DNA of 44,889 nucleotides from Escherichia phage RuthEpting_Bas85: the sequence record PQ850624.1; one strand, given 5' to 3'. The translations under genes were made by a program, and so were the position numbers. Under the pieces are notes generated by a model, which did not search any database, was not told the origin of the DNA, and was given only the letters and a program-made list of their open reading frames with translations. Shown piece by piece: positions 6,123 through 40,188 of this stretch (positions are counted from its first letter, which is position 1; every line of letters begins with the position of its first letter).

Positions 6123-6158
6123 TTTGTTTTCCTTCATATCTCTGTTGGTGTGCAACCA

Positions 6159-11748: not shown

Positions 11749-12018
11749 GCGGGACGGATCGGGACGTCCCGCTTTGTCCCGTTTTGTCCCGCCACCTGCA
11801 AAACTGCATACCTACTCACTTTCATTGCATAAACTAAAAGCGGGACGAGCGGGACGTCCCGATCCGTCCCGCCCCCTAAATGTGCATACCTATTCAGATT
11901 TCGTGCATAAAATAAGCGGGACAGAAAGCGGGACAAACATGGGGCGGGACAAAGCGGGACAGCACCCCGTCCCCGTCAGTGCTGCCGCGGGTTTTAGCCG
12001 ATCGGGACAAGCGGGACA
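11749..12018. repeat. iteron array A (GCGGGACA / TGTCCCGC, both orientations)
   Basis: At least 5 exact GCGGGACA copies (11916, 11928, 11944, 11954, 12011) plus GGGAC-core variants; two identical 12-bp palindromes CGGGACGTCCCG (11760-11771, 11850-11861); two tandem ~80-bp units carrying TGCATA...GCATAAA. Confidence 0.8.
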
Positions 12019-12140: not shown

Positions 12141-14786
12141 ATGGCAGATCAAGCAGCAGGCATCACGCTAAAGGCGGATGTTGCACAAATCAGAACGGCG
12201 AATACGGTGCTGGACTCATTCGCGCAGAAGTCCGAGAACACCGAAAACAAGGTTAAGAAATTAAACGACACACTCGGCAACACGAAAAAGGTGACGGGTG
12301 ACGCCGCGGGCGGAATGGGGAAGCTGGCAACTGAATCGCAGCGCGCCGCAGATGGCATGACGAAGCAGGAGCGACTTGCCAACCGCTTAGGCATGTCGAC
12401 TAAAAACCTGGGCTTTGCCTCACGTAACGCCGCATTTCAGTTACAGGATATTGCGGTCACGCTAGAGATGGGTATGCCGGTGCACCGCGTCATGATTCAG
12501 CAGTTACCGCAGTTAACCGGGGCATTCGGTGGGCTGGGTAATACGCTGCGTTATGTTGCTGGCTTTCTCGGTCCGGTAGGGATCGGCCTTGCTGCGGTAA
12601 CGGCGACGTTAGGCGTAGGCGTGGCGATTACGTCCCGTGCCGAAAACCAGGTAGCGGCGCTGAATAAGACGCTGGCGCTATCAGGTAATATCTCTGGCCT
12701 CACCGCTAACCAGATCCTGGTGCTGTCGGAGAACGCCGAACGCATGGGCGGGTCATTCAGCAAGACGCGTGACACAATTCAGGCACTGGCGGCAGCAGGT
12801 GTGAAAGCGGGTGCTGACTTCGGCGCACTGGCGAAAGTGGTGAACGACTTCGCGAAGGTGTCTAATCAGCCGATCGCTGACGTGGTGGAGTCCATCTCCA
12901 AATTGTCCAACGACCCGGTGGGCGGATTGCGCGCACTGGCGGACAAGTATCACGTCGTTACCGAGGCGCAGATCCAGCAGGTGCAGTCACTGGTTACGAC
13001 GGGTCGCGAAACTGAAGCGGTGGCGTTGGCTAACAAAACAGCCGCGGCGTCGTTCACCAGCATGACCAACGAGATCAAGTCCAACATGGGTACGCTTGAG
13101 CGATCGATGAACGTCGTCACATCGGCAGCTAAATCTATGTGGGATGCCATCCTGGATGTGGGCCGCGCGCAGTCCTCGAATGAGTCCGAGATGAAAGCGC
13201 GTGAGTCCTTGCAGCGCATGACAACGGCTTACTATGCCGAGATGAAAGCGGTAAACGCTGCCGGTGGGGTAATGACCGAGGCGCAGAAAGCACGAATTAA
13301 CATGCTTTATAGCGAACTGGTCGCCCAGGAGAAGGTCGTAGCGTCACTCACCCTGCGCAACCGTGCTGAGCGCGACAACGCCAGCGCCGCGGACAAATCA
13401 GCGAAGGCGAACGAGGAGGCCAACCGCACCGCCCGCGACCGCGCCGCGTTCGAGAAGGAATTTGCCACCAACGCGCAGAAGCGCGCCGACGAGATCGCCC
13501 GCCTCAATTTGCTGAATAAGCGCGGTGTGATTAACGAGAAAGAACTAGCCGAGGCGGTGAAGCAGGTCAACGAGCGCTACAAAGACCCCGCACCGAAGAA
13601 GGCGGCGGCTATTCGCGTGGATGCCGGTGTCAAAATGCTGGAGGTCGCACGGAGCGAACTGGCACAGCTTAAGGAGTCCGGCAAGCAGATCGAGGCCAAT
13701 GCAACAACGCAGACCCGCACGCAGCGCGCACAGGCCGCGTTGAATAAGCTGGTGGCGGATAATGAGCAGATGGTCGCCGCAAGCATGGAGCGCACTCTAA
13801 CGGCAGCAGAAAAGCAGCAAATGGCGGAGTTCGAGGCGGTTAAAGCGGTACGCGAGCAGATCGTCGAAGAAGCCAAATTGCTGGACGCGAAAGAGAAGCA
13901 GATCAAGGCACACGCCCAGGTCGAGGCATTCATCAAGAACCAGAACGCTGAGCTAAGGGCCACCGCTGCGGGCTATGCGCTTTCCACTCGCGAAGCGGCT
14001 AACCTGCGCGAAGAATTACAGCTAATTGACCGCCTTCAGCGTGTCGGCGCTAACGATACTGATATTGACAACGCGGTGTCTAAGCTGCGCGAAGTGCAGG
14101 AAGCACAGACCGGTGCTAACGCCTCGTTGTGGGATGGCTTCAGCCGCGGGCTTAAGGATAGCGTGGATGAAATGGGTAACGGCTACACGCAGATGACGTC
14201 ACTCACAAAATTCACGTTCGGCGCTATGCAGGACACGATGAACAAGTTTTTCGAGACGGGCAAGCTGAGCGCGAAGGATATGGTTAAGTCCATCCTGAGC
14301 GAATTAATCAAGCTGGCTACCTCGCAGGCGTTCAAATCCATCGTTAGCGCTTTCGGCGGTGACGGCGGCAAAAACGGATTGTTCGGCGCTATCTTCTCGG
14401 GCCTCACTAAGAACGCAGACGGCGGAGCGTACGCAGGAGGCAATCTAGCGGCCTATTCCGGGCAAGTGGTAAGCCAGCCTACCTTTTTCAGCTATGGCGT
14501 CCAGGAGTTCGCGAAGGGCGCAGGATTGATGGGTGAGGCTGGACCCGAGGCAATCATGCCACTGAAGCGCGGGCCGGATGGGAAACTGGGCGTTGCCGCT
14601 GCCGGTGTTGGTGGGGGTGGGATGATTGTAACGACCAACGTGAACATGGGGACCGGTAAAACGGACACCAGTGTGAGCGGACCGGACCCACGCACCGCGC
14701 AGGCGTTCGGCAAGCAAATCACCGAGTCGGTCAAGGCTGAGATCGTGAAAGCGACGAAACCGGGTGGAGTACTTTACAAACGATGA
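12141..14786 (+). CDS. tail tape measure protein
   Basis: 881 aa, long alpha-helical Ala/Gln/Glu-rich protein with hydrophobic segments and Gly-rich C-terminus; follows the G/GT chaperone. Confidence 0.9.
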   Translation: MADQAAGITLKADVAQIRTANTVLDSFAQKSENTENKVKKLNDTLGNTKKVTGDAAGGMGKLATESQRAADGMTKQERLANRLGMSTKNLGFASRNAAFQLQDIAVTLEMGMPVHRVMIQQLPQLTGAFGGLGNTLRYVAGFLGPVGIGLAAVTATLGVGVAITSRAENQVAALNKTLALSGNISGLTANQILVLSENAERMGGSFSKTRDTIQALAAAGVKAGADFGALAKVVNDFAKVSNQPIADVVESISKLSNDPVGGLRALADKYHVVTEAQIQQVQSLVTTGRETEAVALANKTAAASFTSMTNEIKSNMGTLERSMNVVTSAAKSMWDAILDVGRAQSSNESEMKARESLQRMTTAYYAEMKAVNAAGGVMTEAQKARINMLYSELVAQEKVVASLTLRNRAERDNASAADKSAKANEEANRTARDRAAFEKEFATNAQKRADEIARLNLLNKRGVINEKELAEAVKQVNERYKDPAPKKAAAIRVDAGVKMLEVARSELAQLKESGKQIEANATTQTRTQRAQAALNKLVADNEQMVAASMERTLTAAEKQQMAEFEAVKAVREQIVEEAKLLDAKEKQIKAHAQVEAFIKNQNAELRATAAGYALSTREAANLREELQLIDRLQRVGANDTDIDNAVSKLREVQEAQTGANASLWDGFSRGLKDSVDEMGNGYTQMTSLTKFTFGAMQDTMNKFFETGKLSAKDMVKSILSELIKLATSQAFKSIVSAFGGDGGKNGLFGAIFSGLTKNADGGAYAGGNLAAYSGQVVSQPTFFSYGVQEFAKGAGLMGEAGPEAIMPLKRGPDGKLGVAAAGVGGGGMIVTTNVNMGTGKTDTSVSGPDPRTAQAFGKQITESVKAEIVKATKPGGVLYKR

Positions 14787-25292: not shown

Positions 25293-25314
25293 TGCAACCA
25301 ACCTATTGGTTGCA
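25293..25314. promoter_or_regulatory. palindromic TGCAACCAA-N4-TTGGTTGCA site
   Basis: Perfect 9-bp inverted arms; overlaps the stop of the HAD gene and precedes the 24719-25240 gene. Confidence 0.45.
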
Positions 25315-36142: not shown

Positions 36143-36661
36143 TTAATCTTCTAATTCGAAATACGTTTCTACTATTTCTTTTAAATCTTTATGGAAGTCT
36201 TCGACGTCGTCATCTTCCAGCTTGGCGACGGATTTAATTTCGAACGCTTCCAGCAGATCATCAAATTCGTCGTTTGCGTCGTCGTCATCGCCGCCTGCGA
36301 TAATCGCGGCATACTGCTTGATTTCGTCGCGCATCTCTTTCAGAGGATCGGCTTCTTTCTTGCCTTTACCTTTCGCCGGTGCTTTTTTAGACTTCGCAGG
36401 TGCTTCTTCCTCGTCCGCGTCGTCGTCATCTTCTACGGCTTCTTTCTTAGCCTTGCCCTTTGCAGGCGCTTTTTTGGACTTCGCCGGTGCTTCATCTTCA
36501 GCGTCGTCATCTTCGACTACTTCTTCTTTTGCCTTGCTCTTAGCCGGGGCTTTCTTCGCTTCCTGTTTACCAACGGCAGCGCCAGCAGTTTCGTAATGCT
36601 TAGCGATGGTTTCCAGTGCTACTACGCCGCGAGTGATCAGGTTTACGATTTGCTCAAACAT
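36143..36661 (-). CDS. highly charged repeat protein (first gene of leftward early operon)
   Basis: 172 aa; ATG 36661 with RBS GGAGA; two ~29-aa tandem repeats (EDDDAEDEAPAKSKKAPAKGKAKKEAV) and an acidic C-terminal half. Confidence 0.5.
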   Translation of the reverse strand: MFEQIVNLITRGVVALETIAKHYETAGAAVGKQEAKKAPAKSKAKEEVVEDDDAEDEAPAKSKKAPAKGKAKKEAVEDDDDADEEEAPAKSKKAPAKGKGKKEADPLKEMRDEIKQYAAIIAGGDDDDANDEFDDLLEAFEIKSVAKLEDDDVEDFHKDLKEIVETYFELED

Positions 36662-36721
36662 GGTATATCTCCGATTGGTTAATTTAAGTATTCGGTGCGG
36701 TATGCCCCGTCAACGAGGTGG

Positions 36722-36751
36722 ATAATAGATTGGTTGCAGGCGGGGTGTCAA
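36722..36751 (-). promoter_or_regulatory. leftward early promoter (sigma70-like) with embedded ATTGGTTGCA motif
   Basis: Minus-strand reading TTGACA(36751-36746)-N18-TATTAT(36727-36722); motif at 36729-36738 lies in the spacer; -35 is part of a 13-bp inverted repeat shared with the rightward promoter. Confidence 0.5.
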
Positions 36752-36870
36752 CAACTAATTTCAAAAAAAAAGCGCCGAGGCAAAATGCGACGGCGCTAAC
36801 CAATAAGAGACAATGAGACGTGATTATTATTATTACACGCGTGCGCGCCCGTTTCAATATACAAAAGGAG

Positions 36871-36899
36871 TTGACACCCCGCATTTTTAGGTGTAGTTT
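36871..36899 (+). promoter_or_regulatory. rightward promoter (sigma70-like)
   Basis: TTGACA(36871-36876)-N17-TAGTTT(36894-36899); followed by palindromic TTGGTCATTAACCAAT (36902-36917) and RBS AGGAGA before ATG 36931. Confidence 0.45.
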
Positions 36900-36930
36900 C
36901 GTTGGTCATTAACCAATAGGAGACAGAACA

Positions 36931-37260
36931 ATGCATATCCACGACGCTATCGAAATGTTAACTACGGCTGTTAGTGGCGAGACAAGCCGGTCCTGGGCTT
37001 ATACCGATGCCGTTGGCGCGGCGTTATTTGAGATCGAACGCCTGCGCAGTGCCGAAAAAGAATTGCGCGCCAAGCTGGAATTACTCAACGGTACGGCAGC
37101 AAGCAAGTTGCAAAAGCACAATGAAGAAATGGAAGAATACAAAAAGCAGGTTATCCGTTTGCGCGACGAGGGCAAGTCCTGGGCGATGATTGCCGAGTTG
37201 ACCGGAATTAATCAAAGCACCGTGCGCTCCTGGGTACGCAATAATAAAACTTCTAAGTAA
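36931..37260 (+). CDS. HTH-containing regulatory protein (putative)
   Basis: 109 aa; C-terminal HTH-like segment KSWAMIAELTGINQSTVRSWVRN; first gene of the rightward operon. Confidence 0.55.
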   Translation: MHIHDAIEMLTTAVSGETSRSWAYTDAVGAALFEIERLRSAEKELRAKLELLNGTAASKLQKHNEEMEEYKKQVIRLRDEGKSWAMIAELTGINQSTVRSWVRNNKTSK

Positions 37261-37270
37261 GGCATCGGCA

Positions 37271-39535
37271 ATGAGCTTAATTAAATTCGCAGTAACAAGA
37301 CCCGCTAAAAAAGGCGAAAAAGCCAGGGCGGAAAACTTCGAGATGACCACTGATGAATTTTTCGAATTTATCAATGATGCAAAAGAAATCTCCTCGGTGC
37401 ACATCAACAAGACTGAAGATAAAGCCGAGTATGCGCGCCGCAAGCGTAAGGCCGATGGCATCGTGGCCTATACCAATGATGGGTTACGCCGCAAGACCAG
37501 TGCGGTCGACCGCTCGATCCTGTTCTTCGATATTGACCGCACCGACACCCGCACATTACGCCGCTGCCGTAAAGCGTTCACCGACGCTGGTCTGGAGCAT
37601 GTATTCCACACCACGACCGGCGACCGTCACCCACTGAAAGGCGGCACACGTTGTGCCCGTTTCCTGGTGCTCACTGACAAGCCTGTACCGGCTGAAGACC
37701 TGGGCCGCGTCCAGTATGCGCTATTAGACCAACTGGGCCTGTCAGATGTGGACTTCGACGACTGCACGAAAGACACCAACCGCCTTATGTACCTGCCTCA
37801 CCAGCAGTCAGTCATTAAGTGCCACTACGGCAAGCGCGCCCGTGTCCGTCGTCTGCTTCGCCTGGCTGACAAGCTGGGAGTTGAGAAAGAGGAAGTGCGC
37901 CGCGAACTGACCCAGGGCGACGATGGCGTGGCGGACGGGATTCTGGATTGGTGCTTCCAGGCTGGCTTTGAGCCGCTGTCATCCGGTCGCGGTTATGAAG
38001 TGCCGTGCCCGAACGAGCACCTACACAGTGGTGAAGGGTCGACGGCTATCATGGTTAAGGATGGAGAGATCCGTTTCAAGTGTATGCACACCGGTAACGA
38101 GTGCTGTTCCGAACTGAACAAACACCAGCACCTGGCGCTGCGTCTGATCGGCATTCCGGACCACCTGAACGTCGAACCACACAATATGTCACGCAAGCAA
38201 ATCGCCGCCATCCTTCCGGGACTGGACGACGAGGAAGTGGAATCGTGCTATGAGCATATTGTTGATGCGGTCGGAGACGGCGACGAGTACGGCGAATGCA
38301 CCGACGCTGACCTGGACAACGAGCCGGTCGCACTATTCAGTAAGCACGACCCGATCATCGAAGGCCTGGTCAACTTCAAATCGACCTGGTATATGGCTGG
38401 TGAGTCGAACATTGGTAAGTCGTTCTACGTGCTGGGCCAGATGGGTGCTGTTGCCGCAGGTATTCCGTTCGGCGGTGCGAAGGTTGTCCAGTCGCATTGC
38501 TTCTATTTCGATGCGGAAGGCGGCGAAGCCTCAAACCAGCGTAAGGAAGCATTGCAGATTAAATATGAGCACGACCTCGACAAGCTGCACATTATCGATC
38601 TGCAATCACGCGGCTGGGATATCACCAGCAAGTCCGGCTTGCGCGAAGTTATCAGCTTTATCAACCGCACCGCTAACGGGGAGCCGGTTGGCCTGGTGGC
38701 CTTCGACTCACTAAACCAGACTGTAGCGCTGCGGTCCGCTGATGCCAAACCGTTCGACGAGAACAACGCAAGCGATATGGGTGAAGTGGTCAAAGCGCTG
38801 AAGTCCATTGCGGAAAATACAGGCGGCAGTGCGGGCGTCATCCATCACCCGGCTAAGGGCGCAAACGGCAGCAGATCGCCACGCGGGTCCGGCGCGCTTC
38901 ATGGTGCTGTTGATTCTGCGTTCTTCCTGGAACAGCCGGACGATAATCAGCCAGGCCAACTCAACCTGTATCACGAAAAATCCCGTAACGGCATCAAGCA
39001 AGCGCCGCGTGGCTTCGTCCTGCTCAAGTGCAAAGTTAAGGTGGATCTCCGTAAGTCTGATGCGTTCGAAGCCCACCAGTCCACCAGCACCGGGCCAGAC
39101 TTTGGTGATGTTGTTGCCGGTTGGGACGTCAAGCCGATCGCATCCACGCCGCGCGACGAGACTCTCTACCTCGTACCGGTCGCCCTGGCACCGTTCGCTA
39201 TAGAACAGGCGAAGGCAGCAGGCAAGGCAGCAGTTAAGGAAGAGAACACCGCCGGACCGCGCAACGAAAAAGAGAAGGTGCTTTATGCGGCACTGGAAAA
39301 ACTGATGGAAGATAACCCGGACCATACTGGATTCAGTAAATCGGCAATCGTCCGCCAGGCTGGACTTGCGAAAGGTGGCACATCGACGAAGGCAATCGAC
39401 GATATGGTGGAGCGCGGCGTGCTCGGATTTTATACAGATCCACACACCGGGGCCATCTATGGGTCGTCGAATCTGGTCATAAAATCGGATATACCCATCA
39501 CGCTTTCAGCGACCGATGATGACCTGAAAGATTAA
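37271..39535 (+). CDS. bifunctional primase-polymerase / helicase
   Basis: 754 aa; N-terminal AEP-primase-like motifs (ILFFDIDRTD, TTGDRHPLKGG), Cys/His zinc-binding segment, C-terminal RecA/DnaB-like ATPase (MAGESNIGKSF Walker A, LVAFDSLNQ Walker B). Confidence 0.8.
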   Translation: MSLIKFAVTRPAKKGEKARAENFEMTTDEFFEFINDAKEISSVHINKTEDKAEYARRKRKADGIVAYTNDGLRRKTSAVDRSILFFDIDRTDTRTLRRCRKAFTDAGLEHVFHTTTGDRHPLKGGTRCARFLVLTDKPVPAEDLGRVQYALLDQLGLSDVDFDDCTKDTNRLMYLPHQQSVIKCHYGKRARVRRLLRLADKLGVEKEEVRRELTQGDDGVADGILDWCFQAGFEPLSSGRGYEVPCPNEHLHSGEGSTAIMVKDGEIRFKCMHTGNECCSELNKHQHLALRLIGIPDHLNVEPHNMSRKQIAAILPGLDDEEVESCYEHIVDAVGDGDEYGECTDADLDNEPVALFSKHDPIIEGLVNFKSTWYMAGESNIGKSFYVLGQMGAVAAGIPFGGAKVVQSHCFYFDAEGGEASNQRKEALQIKYEHDLDKLHIIDLQSRGWDITSKSGLREVISFINRTANGEPVGLVAFDSLNQTVALRSADAKPFDENNASDMGEVVKALKSIAENTGGSAGVIHHPAKGANGSRSPRGSGALHGAVDSAFFLEQPDDNQPGQLNLYHEKSRNGIKQAPRGFVLLKCKVKVDLRKSDAFEAHQSTSTGPDFGDVVAGWDVKPIASTPRDETLYLVPVALAPFAIEQAKAAGKAAVKEENTAGPRNEKEKVLYAALEKLMEDNPDHTGFSKSAIVRQAGLAKGGTSTKAIDDMVERGVLGFYTDPHTGAIYGSSNLVIKSDIPITLSATDDDLKD

Positions 39536-39626
39536 ATTTTGCGCGCATTGGTTGCCAAATTGAGTGTTTTTAGCTGGTCGCATTGGTTGCCGTGTAGTGT
39601 AAATATAGTGAATAGTTATGCAGTTT

Positions 39627-39745
39627 TATTGCATAAAATAAGCGGGACAAAAAGCGGGACAGACAGGGGGCGGGACAAAGCGGGACAGCACCCCTTGTCC
39701 CGCCCGGATGGCGCGGCTTTCAGAGGAGCGGGACAGGCGGGACAA
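39627..39745. repeat. iteron array B (second copy)
   Basis: TTGCATAAAAT followed by six exact GCGGGACA copies (39642, 39654, 39670, 39680, 39728, 39737) and one inverted TGTCCCGC; ~85% identical to 11895-12018. Confidence 0.8.
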
Positions 39746-39749
39746 ACCC

Positions 39750-39799
39750 CAGTCTTTCAGACTAGACGGGGGTCAGTCGGCCCCCCTCGTCTGAGACTG
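39750..39799 (+). other. long imperfect hairpin B
   Basis: CAGTCTTTCAGACTAGACGGGGG-tcagtcg-GCCCCCCTCGTCTGAGACTG; arms identical to hairpin A, loop one nt longer. Confidence 0.6.
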
Positions 39800-40017
39800 C
39801 ATAAAATCCGGGATTGCATAATGTACGGCAGCATGACGTGAATTGCGGTCGTCGACGAACTAGGCAACCAATGCGAGTTGTATTATGGGTGGTGAAAAAT
39901 GCAGTTTGCAGTTACAGCAGATAGCGATCAACTTTTTCATACGCATGATTAATATTGGTTGCATTCAGCCTGGCACCCTGCTAGATTGGTTGCACCCCAA
40001 CGAGAGGACCAAACAAA

Positions 40018-40188
40018 ATGAAATTTCCAGTAACCATCAAAGACGGTAAATCAACTATCACCTTCACAAGCAACGACCAGGGCACCTATGAAAGCGGGGC
40101 GACTTGCATGTCTACCCTGGACGATGTGATGATTCGTGTTAATTCCGGTAAAGCCTCGATTGTTGACGACAACACTAAGAAGGACTGA
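40018..40188 (+). CDS. small hypothetical protein (56 aa)
   Basis: ATG with RBS AGAGG; MKFPVTIKDGKSTITFTSNDQ...; below ORF-track size cut-off; first ORF after element B. Confidence 0.4.
   Translation: MKFPVTIKDGKSTITFTSNDQGTYESGATCMSTLDDVMIRVNSGKASIVDDNTKKD

Follow-up and report, generated by a model that had tools for sequence, protein, structure and literature searches.

Three promoters and a predicted small RNA in the divergent early control region of a Dhillonvirus

How are the two oppositely transcribed arms of a phage genome set in motion, and possibly kept in check, from the one spacer that separates them? The question is raised by positions 36662 to 36930 of Escherichia phage RuthEpting_Bas85, whose sequence record (44,889 nt, hereafter the window) is that of a near-complete Dhillonvirus, an HK578-like coliphage. 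Coliphages of this genus are common and easy to work with; the BASEL collection includes several, and many are under study for therapy. A map of gene orientations identified this spacer as the sole point in the genome where leftward and rightward genes diverge: minus-strand genes run from 36661 down to 24101, and plus-strand genes from 36931 to the end of the window and on from position 1 to 24077. The first gene of the leftward arm (36143 to 36661, minus strand) encodes a 172-amino-acid acidic Lys/Ala/Pro-repeat protein (phrog_3127) for which a Pfam search gave no match. The first gene of the rightward arm (36931 to 37260, plus strand) encodes a 109-amino-acid protein with a C-terminal helix-turn-helix (HTH_23 / sigma-70 region 4-like), a candidate regulator whose HTH part is also present in the otherwise different gene of HK578 (48% over 67 amino acids); it is followed by the gene for a replicative primase-helicase (37271 to 39535, plus strand; phrog_3228, AAA_25). 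An earlier sequence-only reading of the window had placed a divergent control region here, between a leftward operon and a rightward regulator/primase operon. Gene orientations agree with that placement, as does the gene order on the right, with the small HTH gene first and the primase-helicase gene next, and all of the sequence strings listed in that reading were found in place when the sequence was reread. As developed below, the spacer is best viewed as a putative early transcription hub with three host-type (sigma-70) promoters rather than two. Across 154 records, the spacer was either unannotated, or filled with spurious “hypothetical protein” open reading frames (ORFs), or marked with isolated promoter or terminator features only. 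The literature searched contained no Dhillonvirus transcript map and no report of a small RNA or of promoter work in this genus. Most relatives carry an extra segment of about 135 nt that several records annotate as extending the acidic protein at its N terminus; we rejected this annotation because 6 of the 23 unique versions have an interrupted frame and because the substitutions were distributed 5:3:6 over the codon positions, with radical replacements.

Two of the promoters face outward. P_L (36722 to 36751, minus strand) has a -35 TTGACA (36751 to 36746) and a -10 TATTAT (36727 to 36722) separated by 18 nt; with 11 of 12 consensus matches, it ranked first among the promoter-like sites of a 20-kb scan, and its hexamers read TTGAC(A/T) and TATTAT, TAATAT, or TATCAT in relatives. 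P_R (36871 to 36899, plus strand) has a -35 TTGACA (36871 to 36876), a 17-nt spacer, and a -10 TAGTTT (36894 to 36899); the latter keeps T1, A2, and T6 but, with 3 of 6 matches, lies under the -10 threshold of the promoter scan and was read from the sequence. Among 39 unique relatives, the P_R -35 was invariant and its -10 was 99% conserved. Transcription is predicted to start near 36714 from P_L and near 36905 from P_R. These two, together with a third promoter treated below (P_s), have the sequence features sought for sigma-70 recognition, i.e., hexamers near TTGACA and TATAAT at a spacing of 16 to 18 nt and, within the -10, the key bases T1, A2, and T6, and the HK578 annotation independently marks promoters at all three positions. 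The outward-facing TTGACA boxes that had been noticed on each strand are thus supported as parts of sigma-70-type promoters. A further leftward candidate (TTGACG-17-TACTTA, at about 36714 to 36686) was rejected as unconserved, relatives having TCGACA there.

Each outward -35 box, together with 7 further nucleotides, forms one arm of an inverted repeat (GCGGGGTGTCAAC at 36740 to 36752 and GTTGACACCCCGC at 36870 to 36882). The repeat is perfect over 13 nt, and its arms are the sole two exact copies in the window. That much of the original description stands, but the perfection is confined to RuthEpting_Bas85 and its near-twin SP1: arm-to-arm identity was 8 to 13 of 13 positions, mostly 9 or 10, among the 39 unique relatives, leaving the two -35 boxes and CC as the only part in common. 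Nonconservation of the repeat, which had been named as a ground for dropping the idea of a control region, was therefore found in part. Nor is the region “symmetric,” as it had been called, since a GCAACCAAT box lies in the spacer of P_L and none in that of P_R, and since the third promoter and a terminator, both situated between P_L and P_R, both face left.

That third promoter, P_s (36829 to 36857, minus strand), has a -35 TTGAAA (36857 to 36852), a 17-nt spacer, and a -10 AATAAT (36834 to 36829), for 10 of 12 consensus matches plus an extended -10 TG; its hexamers were almost invariant in relatives, and what had been recorded as an AT-rich stretch falls within it, as its -10. Downstream on the same strand is an intrinsic terminator (36762 to 36797) composed of a hairpin (36797 to 36771) with a GC-rich 7-bp outer stem and a 3-bp inner stem (fold, -16.7 kcal/mol), then T9 (36770 to 36762). 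The A9 tract on the plus strand (36762 to 36770) is this same T9, lying directly 3' of the hairpin on the minus strand, and no T-run was found beside the hairpin on the plus strand. Within an alignment of relatives, the T-run was 8 to 13 nt long and the hairpin pairing was kept in 100% of 120 cells, including 2 compensatory pairs and 1 G-U pair that all belong to one lineage and so amount effectively to a single event. With its GC-rich stem-loop, its U-run, and a structure maintained in evolution, the element has what is sought in an intrinsic terminator, and the annotators of WF5505 independently marked a terminator at the same hairpin and T-run. Hairpin and A9 tract are thus present as first reported, but as a minus-strand terminator rather than as features of an origin.

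The terminator is located 10 bp upstream of the P_L -35, with its T-run at the position of an upstream element, and the T-run probably also serves P_L as an A/T-rich upstream element. This placement, and the tandem arrangement of P_s and P_L in the same direction, would suit an explanation in which P_s and the terminator produce no functional regulator: the transcript would be a by-product whose terminator shields P_L, or else a leader like that of lambda pR'-tR' (6S RNA), through which a phage antiterminator would read, raising transcription of the leftward arm at a later stage of infection. We consider this explanation improbable. P_L is already near consensus, so that a supply by read-through seems needless, and no Q- or N-like antiterminator was found adjoining the region by domain and PHROG annotation; two further observations, on folding and on conservation, also count against it.

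P_s and the terminator bracket what looks like a small-RNA unit, from about 36822 to 36762 on the minus strand, which should release an RNA of about 60 bases with the form 5'-(CAC)GUCUCAUUGUCUCUUAUUGGUUA-hairpin-U9, both ends being predicted. We infer that this RNA is produced and that its ends lie about there. Its 5' part, hereafter the seed (36798 to 36822, minus strand), reads on the plus strand as a third copy, TAACCAATAAGAGACAATG, of a motif found in the leaders of the two flanking genes. The 5' 27 nt were unpaired in both the minimum free energy (MFE) and centroid structures, and no alternative anti-terminator fold was evident, contrary to what a 6S-like leader would lead one to expect. 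The by-product explanation likewise fails to account for the constancy of the seed, in which 21 of 25 alignment columns were invariant. The corresponding count was 1 of 14 for the actual right-hand initiation region and 12 of 100 for adjacent coding sequence, and drift is seen in neighboring spacers as well as in genuine initiation regions. The unit was full length in all 154 Dhillonvirus-type records. Searches farther afield returned no match in other phage records or in E. coli genomes, a covariance-model search of the loci of distant relatives found none, and Rfam searches (E up to 10) gave best scores of 18 to 21 bits against thresholds of 43 to 72 for the window region and likewise sub-threshold noise alone for a long-leader relative. 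Scans of IMG/VR and metagenomes added few variants, and the matches of a 15-mer scan were mostly due to chance. Distant relatives have the same gene pair and back-to-back promoters without the small-RNA module, which would therefore be a genus-specific addition. The unit thus appears to be conserved genus-wide and, as such, previously unannotated.

Coding and antisense explanations of the same stretch were also considered. No conserved ORF was found across the unit on either strand: a 66-amino-acid minus-strand ORF, like similar ORFs annotated in some records, is broken by the T-run indels (8 to 13 nt), and a plus-strand mini-ORF of 25 codons that follows the third copy of the motif is read in frames that differ between phages. 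A cis-antisense RNA of the sar or OOP type was rejected as well, given that the opposite strand encodes nothing conserved and that the mini-ORF there is without a promoter.

What the predicted RNA might act on is suggested by the leaders themselves. The left copy of the shared motif (ATTAACCAAT-C-GGAGA; 36668 to 36683, minus strand) places its Shine-Dalgarno GGAGA 6 nt before the ATG, and the right copy (ATTAACCAATAGGAGACA; 36908 to 36925, plus strand) places its own 8 nt before the ATG. The motif ATTAACCAAT-(C/A)-GGAGA thus recurs on both strands (23 nt, 83% complementary), its plus-strand occurrence spanning 36908 to 36922, and each copy begins 22 to 23 nt ahead of its start codon, close to the distance of about 20 nt given when the shared leader was first pointed out. 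The third copy (TAACCAATAAGAGACA, 36797 to 36812) is 94% identical to the right-hand one. All three TAACCAAT copies of the window lie within the 250-bp spacer, a clustering that exceeds chance.

Because its unpaired GUCUCAUUGUCUCUUAUUGGUUA is the reverse complement of the third, inverted leader copy, the RNA could pair with UAACCAAU-N-GGAGA(CA) in both mRNAs. With the right leader, the seed forms a continuous 16-bp helix (-22.1 kcal/mol) that ranked 1st among 91 initiation-like sites, this leader being the best non-self partner window of the seed in the whole genome; with the left leader, it forms a duplex of -16.9 kcal/mol that ranked 6th of 91. Full-length cofolding gave ddG values of -17.8 (right) and -15.0 kcal/mol (left), and 0 of 300 shuffled seeds did as well, although these statistics are partly post hoc in that the similarity itself first drew attention to the region. 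According to these models, the RNA would offer an accessible seed complementary to ribosome-binding sites, as is sought in a regulatory small RNA. Pairing over the Shine-Dalgarno sequence was kept in relatives, at about -17 on the left and between -13 and -24 on the right. The left leader was invariant except in the LM40P1 lineage, where the seed has lost one base and the left leader has changed independently, leaving a left pairing of about -12.6. On the right, TAACCAA was invariant in the relatives that carry this leader, save for an A-to-G change that pairs as G-U, and the Shine-Dalgarno part varied; most relatives read TAACCAAC... there, for a helix of 7 + 7 bp around 1 or 2 mismatches. 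HK578-type phages keep the RNA unit with a different right leader and weak pairing (-13 to -15.5). Compensatory change between seed and targets was looked for among relatives and none was found, the change in the LM40P1 lineage being noncompensatory, a result that speaks for a by-product transcript.

The explanation that we favor, tentatively and at a little short of an even chance, is that the predicted small RNA pairs with the leaders of both first genes and regulates their translation. The sequence and its comparison among relatives show the signals for promoters and terminator, how well these are conserved, and the complementarity of seed and leaders; the course of events that they suggest is as follows. 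P_L (36751 to 36722) would start the leftward arm, and P_R (36871 to 36899) the rightward arm with its HTH-protein and primase-helicase genes, while P_s (36857 to 36829), facing left, would drive a transcript that meets the terminator after about 60 nt and is released as the small RNA. Its pairing would cover the Shine-Dalgarno sequences of both first genes, and we infer that such pairing occurs in vivo and represses. The effect would be an RNA-level damping or timing of first-gene translation, strongest on the right-hand HTH gene. The GCAACCAAT box in the P_L spacer, one of a genome-wide set and probably protein binding, could supply a second layer. A fuller version, in which a dedicated trans-acting RNA derived from an inverted pseudo-ribosome-binding copy throttles translation of the first gene of both arms as a timer, atop a system of GCAACCAAT protein boxes that connects the early promoters with the replication origin, strikes us as rather doubtful. 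On that version, the invariant 23-nt seed might also target a host mRNA.

The same leader motif can be read as DNA. A fourth AACCAAT in the spacer, at 36729 to 36735 and missed at first, is part of the GCAACCAAT box (36729 to 36737, minus strand) that ends 1 nt before the P_L -10 and that relatives have unchanged and in the same place. The genome holds 18 AACCAAT versus 5.7 expected (0 of 100 shuffles), and 15 of the 18 are GCAACCAAT, nearly all intergenic and often paired, with several copies, including that of P_L, lying 1 nt ahead of a -10-like hexamer. When the family is defined as the exact 9-mer GCAACCAAT in noncoding sequence, the P_L box belongs to it; the three TAACCAAT copies, two of them in the leaders and one in the small-RNA region, lack the GC prefix and fall outside. 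The P_L box is a likely site of a phage DNA-binding protein. In addition, a palindrome, TTGGT-N5-ACCAA (36902 to 36916), spans the predicted P_R start as a possible dimeric operator; it occurs twice in the genome versus 0.00 expected, the other occurrence adjoining a GCAACCAAT pair at 6145.

These sequences raise a serious rival to the small RNA, even if one that we hold to be somewhat unlikely, namely, that a DNA-binding protein of the phage uses AACCAAT-type sequences as its operators. This could be the HTH protein or the origin-binding replication protein. Bound to the P_L box and the P_R palindrome, and possibly to the TAACCAAT copies as weaker sites, that protein would silence the early promoters or adjust their activity, and seed and leaders would be complementary only because they have boxes in common. 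Such a reading is compatible with the small RNA being made. The excess of AACCAAT, the mostly intergenic GCAACCAAT copies abutting -10-like hexamers, the box positions kept in relatives, and the two palindromes, one over the P_R start and one beside a box pair, would all follow from it, as would an HTH protein encoded at the locus whose HTH part is retained in the variant gene of HK578. Distant relatives point the same way: their lineage-specific boxes (GCAACCAAC and CAGCCAAC) cluster beside the primase-helicase gene, one of them abutting a Shine-Dalgarno sequence, and L117 carries a TAACCAAC left leader without the small-RNA module. An AACCAA core that belongs to a protein-box-like family, and a leader of this kind in a distant relative that lacks the module, count against a purely RNA-based account; the leader motif therefore has some RNA-independent function. 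Operators alone, however, would not explain why the leader and middle copies are the only AACCAAT sequences without the GC prefix of all 15 family members, or why they share an N-RGAGA(CA) extension absent from the family. The middle copy is antisense to its own transcript and the leader copies are sense, an orientation needed for RNA pairing but irrelevant to a protein, and the invariant promoter and terminator that bracket the middle copy would go unexplained.

The favored small-RNA explanation has partial precedents. The sar RNA of P22, about 69 nt long and encoded in the immI region, has its own sigma-70 promoter and intrinsic terminator and pairs over the ant ribosome-binding site to lower translation. 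The RNA predicted here would share with it the short length, the dedicated promoter and terminator, and the pairing over a ribosome-binding site in an early regulatory mRNA; unlike sar, which is cis-antisense and fully complementary, its gene is separate from both proposed targets, and the complementarity spans 14 to 16 nt. P22 is also temperate, whereas Dhillonviruses are virulent. The c4 RNA of P1/P7 and the CI RNA of P4 act in trans on short leader boxes, one of which overlaps a ribosome-binding site, and there, too, boxes and complementary RNA segments are repeats within one control region, as are the three TAACCAAT-N-RGAGA copies here. Those RNAs differ in being processed from longer transcripts and in serving lysogenic immunity, and no sequence or Rfam relationship to them was found. 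Hfq-type enterobacterial small RNAs, including the prophage-borne DicF, are about 50 to 100 nt long, with their own promoter, an unstructured 5' seed, and a U tail; the predicted RNA resembles them in its GC-rich terminator hairpin, long U tail, and imperfect pairing near Shine-Dalgarno sequences, and differs in that it is proposed to act on the two phage operons that flank it. Lambda OOP, cis-antisense to cII, and the lambda pR'-tR' 6S transcript, a substrate of Q antitermination, are short, constitutive, terminated phage transcripts beside replication or late genes, comparable to a predicted RNA in a control region, but neither has a seed matching two flanking leaders. Strictly lytic phages have hardly been surveyed for regulatory RNAs. 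If borne out, the locus would be a compact case of one small RNA governing both early operons of a phage, and the current annotations of the spacer across the 154 records would need correction; otherwise, it is a divergent early promoter spacer of the usual kind.

The spacer had also been proposed as a candidate second origin of replication on the strength of a DnaA box, the A-tract, the hairpin, and the AT-rich stretch, a proposal that now appears highly improbable. The DnaA-box look-alike GGTGGATAA (36717 to 36725, plus strand), which had been taken to mark the origin, overlaps the P_L -10 and is unique to RuthEpting_Bas85, the 40 other versions tabulated reading GGTGAATAA, AGTGAATAT, AGTGAATGA, and similar; we judge it a chance match. 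A DnaA-dependent origin was accordingly rejected, there being one 8/9 box only, and the other elements are those of the terminator and of the P_s -10. The location beside the primase-helicase operon, the single and possibly iteron-type GCAACCAAT box within the spacer, and a cumulative GC-skew minimum near 36 to 38 kb would be in keeping with an origin, but the skew is uninformative because it turns where the coding strand switches, which needs no origin. Dense repeat arrays are found instead in the noncoding stretch from 39536 to 40018, directly 3' of the primase-helicase gene, with 5 GCAACCAAT and 7 GCGGGACA, and distant relatives have box arrays of their own at the same position after that gene. 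By its sequence, this iteron-like region at 39.54 to 40.0 kb seems a far better candidate origin than the spacer, and the search for an origin is redirected there; the 15-copy GCAACCAAT family probably organizes the transcription or replication program of the phage. The iteron-type origin of P4 (ori/crr), bound by the alpha protein and lying beside a primase-helicase gene, is similar in having boxes arrayed beside a replication gene with extra copies elsewhere, a likeness that is limited to the 39.5- to 40.0-kb region and the single P_L box rather than the whole spacer, with binding and origin function here being predicted. Across Dhillonvirus and its distant relatives, the sequence of the boxes varies by lineage and their position is constant.

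The 44.9-kb DNA covers almost the whole genome of a virulent siphophage of E. coli, an HK578-like member of Dhillonvirus. Its plus-strand genes run from 36931 to the window end and on from 1 to ~24077 and minus-strand genes from 36661 down to ~24101; the spacer at 36662-36930 is therefore the sole point at which the two transcription arms diverge. To its left lies the gene for an acidic 172-aa protein of unknown function, and to its right (36931-37260) that for a 109-aa protein with a C-terminal helix-turn-helix (HTH), followed on the rightward arm by the replicative primase-helicase gene. Escherichia phage Haito_Bas83 shares 97.5% identity with the 1.3 kb round the spacer, for which 154 phage records give matches, essentially all from Dhillonvirus. 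An early regulatory hub, symmetric about an inverted repeat and with origin elements, had been proposed here from sequence alone. The hub holds in outline (divergence point and promoters), but its symmetric-repeat and origin elements are not supported; the most interesting content of the spacer is instead an unannotated, genus-wide promoter-seed-terminator unit whose parts had been taken for origin elements.

All strings listed in that sequence-only reading are present where it placed them. In a scan of 20 kb for sigma-70-like sites, the leftward promoter P_L (TTGACA-18-TATTAT, 36751->36722) came first, followed by an overlooked promoter-like site on the minus strand, P_s (TTGAAA-17-AATAAT with TG before the -10, 36857->36829). 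The rightward P_R (TTGACA-17-TAGTTT, 36871->36899) keeps the three key -10 positions yet falls under the scan's -10 threshold. Across 39 unique relatives, P_R has an invariant -35 and a 99% conserved -10, the P_s hexamers are nearly invariant, and those of P_L vary within functional forms only: TTGAC(A/T) and TATTAT/TAATAT/TATCAT. The GenBank record of HK578 independently annotates exactly three promoters, two leftward and one rightward, matching P_L, P_s and P_R. The 13-nt inverted repeat is perfect, and its two exact copies are the only ones in the window, but elsewhere it is perfect only in the near-identical phage SP1. Among the 39 unique versions its arms agree at 8 to 13 of 13 positions, mostly 9 to 10. 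Because the core common to relatives is TTGAC(A/T)C(C), two -35 boxes and little more, the apparent symmetry is mostly that of two good -35 hexamers facing outward; the expectation that relatives conserve the repeat was borne out only in part.

In minus-strand orientation the A9 tract becomes a previously overlooked T9 run directly after the hairpin (AGCGCCG-UC-GCA-UUU-UGC-CU-CGGCGCU, then U9), which folds at -16.7 kcal/mol and leaves the 27 nt upstream of it unpaired. In 12 distinct variants, all 120 of 120 pair cells are standard. Two outer-stem pairs are changed on both sides (G-C to U-A and G-C to C-G) and one to G-U; since all these changes fall in the LM40P1 lineage, the covariation is good but single-event support. 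The U-run is 8 to 13 long in relatives, the WF5505 annotation independently places a minus-strand terminator here, and the plus strand has neither a T-run at the hairpin nor any transcription rightward into it. Hairpin and A-tract are thus a predicted terminator. With P_s placed 7 nt before ~36822 and 36762 as the end of the terminator, a leftward RNA of ~60 nt is expected from the two, and we think it probable that this RNA is actually made. The unit is full-length in 154/154 Dhillonvirus-type records (at least 90% identical in 150), was not found in any other phage record, had no match in 5,426 E. coli genomes and is absent from Rfam; its covariance model found no match in the loci of distant relatives. 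In those phages, whose primase-helicase is 37-45% identical, the divergent gene pair is the same, but the spacer is only ~170 bp long, with back-to-back promoters and neither hairpin nor T-run, so that the small-RNA module is, on this comparison, an addition specific to this genus.

Other readings of the unit were rejected. T-run indels disrupt every ORF crossing the run, a 25-codon plus-strand mini-ORF behind the third motif copy reads one conserved stretch in a frame that differs from phage to phage, and the test for a cis-antisense RNA failed, with nothing conserved on the opposite strand. Small "hypothetical proteins" are annotated over the spacer in several records (window 36684-36884, minus strand; bas15_0049, P9602_gp50, P9604_gp39, Bas83_0053); these are almost certainly spurious, because they cross promoters, terminator and the variable-length T-run.

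The motif reported as common to both leaders was confirmed as ATTAACCAAT-(C/A)-GGAGA (left, 36668-36683, minus strand; right, 36908-36922, plus strand), and all three genomic copies of the octamer TAACCAAT lie inside the spacer. The overlooked third copy, TAACCAATAAGAGACA (36797-36812), equals the right leader at 15/16 positions. As the unpaired seed of the RNA (36798-36822, minus strand) is the reverse complement of this copy, it could pair with both real leaders over the Shine-Dalgarno sequence, and the ~60-nt RNA is predicted to do so at the ribosome-binding sites on both flanks. When every 30-nt window of both strands was scanned, the right leader came out as the top partner once the RNA's own gene was set aside, with 16 bp of uninterrupted helix that includes one G-U (-22.1 kcal/mol); a few interrupted duplexes elsewhere reach -21.8. 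Among 91 initiation-like sites the right leader ranked 1 and the left 6; full-length cofolding left the terminator intact, with net values of -17.8 (right) and -15.0 (left) kcal/mol that 0/300 shuffled seeds equaled, although these pairing statistics are partly post hoc. In relatives the pairing is about -17 on the left and -13 to -24 on the right. Invariant columns number 21/25 in the seed versus 1/14 in the proposed right-hand target; a seed more conserved than its target is usual when it has several targets. Compensatory seed/target changes were looked for in relatives and none was found: in the LM40P1 lineage, seed and left leader changed independently, most relatives have the right leader TAACCAAC, which interrupts the helix, and the right leader of HK578-type phages is of another kind and pairs weakly. 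We hold the full small-RNA mechanism only tentatively, at a little short of an even chance.

In P22, the small terminated RNA sar blocks an early regulator at its ribosome-binding site; the P1 c4 and P4 CI RNAs act in trans on short repeated boxes. The proposed RNA would be closest to these in function and like Hfq-type small RNAs in form. No description of Dhillonvirus transcripts, promoters or small RNAs was found in the literature searched. If made, the ~60-nt RNA would belong to the known kind of phage-encoded base-pairing RNAs.

A protein could account for the repeated motif on its own. AACCAAT, a fourth spacer copy of which (36729-36735) had been missed, is not private to the spacer (18 copies versus 5.7 expected; 0/100 shuffles), and 15/18 copies extend to the 9-mer GCAACCAAT (~0.3 expected at that length), starting at 6152, 6166, 22274, 25305, 27209, 27226, 30167, 36729, 39547, 39582, 39864, 39954, 39985, 40695 and 43248, with 1-mismatch copies at 25294, 30155, 33985, 34001 and 43225. 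Nearly all are intergenic, often as inverted pairs or as pairs 12-35 bp apart; in several cases, such as the P_L spacer (GCAACCAAT-c-TATTAT), a -10-like hexamer follows after 1 nt, and relatives keep the positions. Against 0.00 expected, the palindrome TTGGT-N5-ACCAA has two copies, one over the predicted P_R start and one beside the box pair at 6145. A phage DNA-binding protein that organizes transcription and/or replication probably recognizes GCAACCAAT. Two distant relatives have lineage-specific boxes, GCAACCAAC (nine copies, L117) and CAGCCAAC (six, L118), clustered immediately downstream of the primase-helicase gene, the matching place to the window's five-copy cluster at 39547-39993; one L118 box abuts a Shine-Dalgarno sequence, and L117, despite lacking the small-RNA module, has the left leader CTAACCAAC-TGAGGA. 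The excess outside the spacer, the conserved positions and this leader all strengthen the protein reading, as does retention of the HTH part in HK578's otherwise different gene. That a phage protein recognizing AACCAA-type boxes exists is very likely, as is its action on P_L; P_R may be a further target, and one candidate is the HTH protein encoded next door. Boxes alone, however, do not account for the invariance of the promoter and terminator that enclose the middle copy, or for its being the one copy in antisense orientation to the transcript it lies in; moreover, the GC prefix is missing from the three leader/RNA-region copies and from no others, and these three have in common an N-RGAGA(CA) extension not present in the box family. 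The two layers are compatible; a small RNA together with protein boxes is our first choice, ahead of protein boxes alone.

GenBank calls the HTH protein a transposase, a resolvase or "DNA recombination nuclease inhibitor gamma," names that look like propagated mislabels, because only the C-terminal HTH (HTH_23 / sigma-70 region 4-like) is detectable. In HK578 (L004 1590-2054) and CHD5UKE2 (L147), a mosaic joint lies immediately downstream of the P_R -10: the right leader and the N-terminal half of the HTH protein (142 aa) differ, whereas the HTH part is shared with the window (48% identity over 67 aa), which places a recombination point inside the control region.

As for a second origin, the DnaA-box-like GGTGGATAA, which overlaps the P_L -10, occurs in this phage alone: every relative departs from it at the fifth base or at more positions. 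The hairpin and A-tract are accounted for by the terminator, and the AT-rich stretch by the P_s -10. No origin is needed for the minimum of cumulative GC skew near 36-38 kb, since it coincides with the change of coding strand. A better candidate, and the best in the genome, is the 483-bp non-coding stretch at 39536-40018, right after the primase-helicase gene, with five GCAACCAAT boxes and, between them, seven GCGGGACA repeats (39642-39744) and internal inverted repeats. GCGGGACA occurs 16 times genome-wide (2.05 expected); a second tight array of six (11785-12018) occupies a gap in the arm of structural genes, just ahead of an 881-aa ORF at 12141, and could be bound by the same factor as the 39.6-kb array.

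In most Dhillonviruses the leftward operon has a 5' leader longer by ~135 nt of very high conservation (e.g., CS16, L006 640-800), a segment absent from the window between 36684 and 36700 and without a match in Rfam. Several GenBank records treat it as coding for extra N-terminal residues of the acidic protein, a reading we rejected; with the frame broken in 6/23 unique versions and substitutions distributed 5:3:6 over codon positions, it behaves as a conserved non-coding leader element. In distant relatives (L109-L116, ~2340-2500), a strong terminator-like hairpin with A/T runs on both flanks, followed by the conserved words GCAGAGGTAGG and AAAAATGCAACCGCTCA, lies between the HTH and primase-helicase genes, which in Dhillonviruses are just 10 bp apart.
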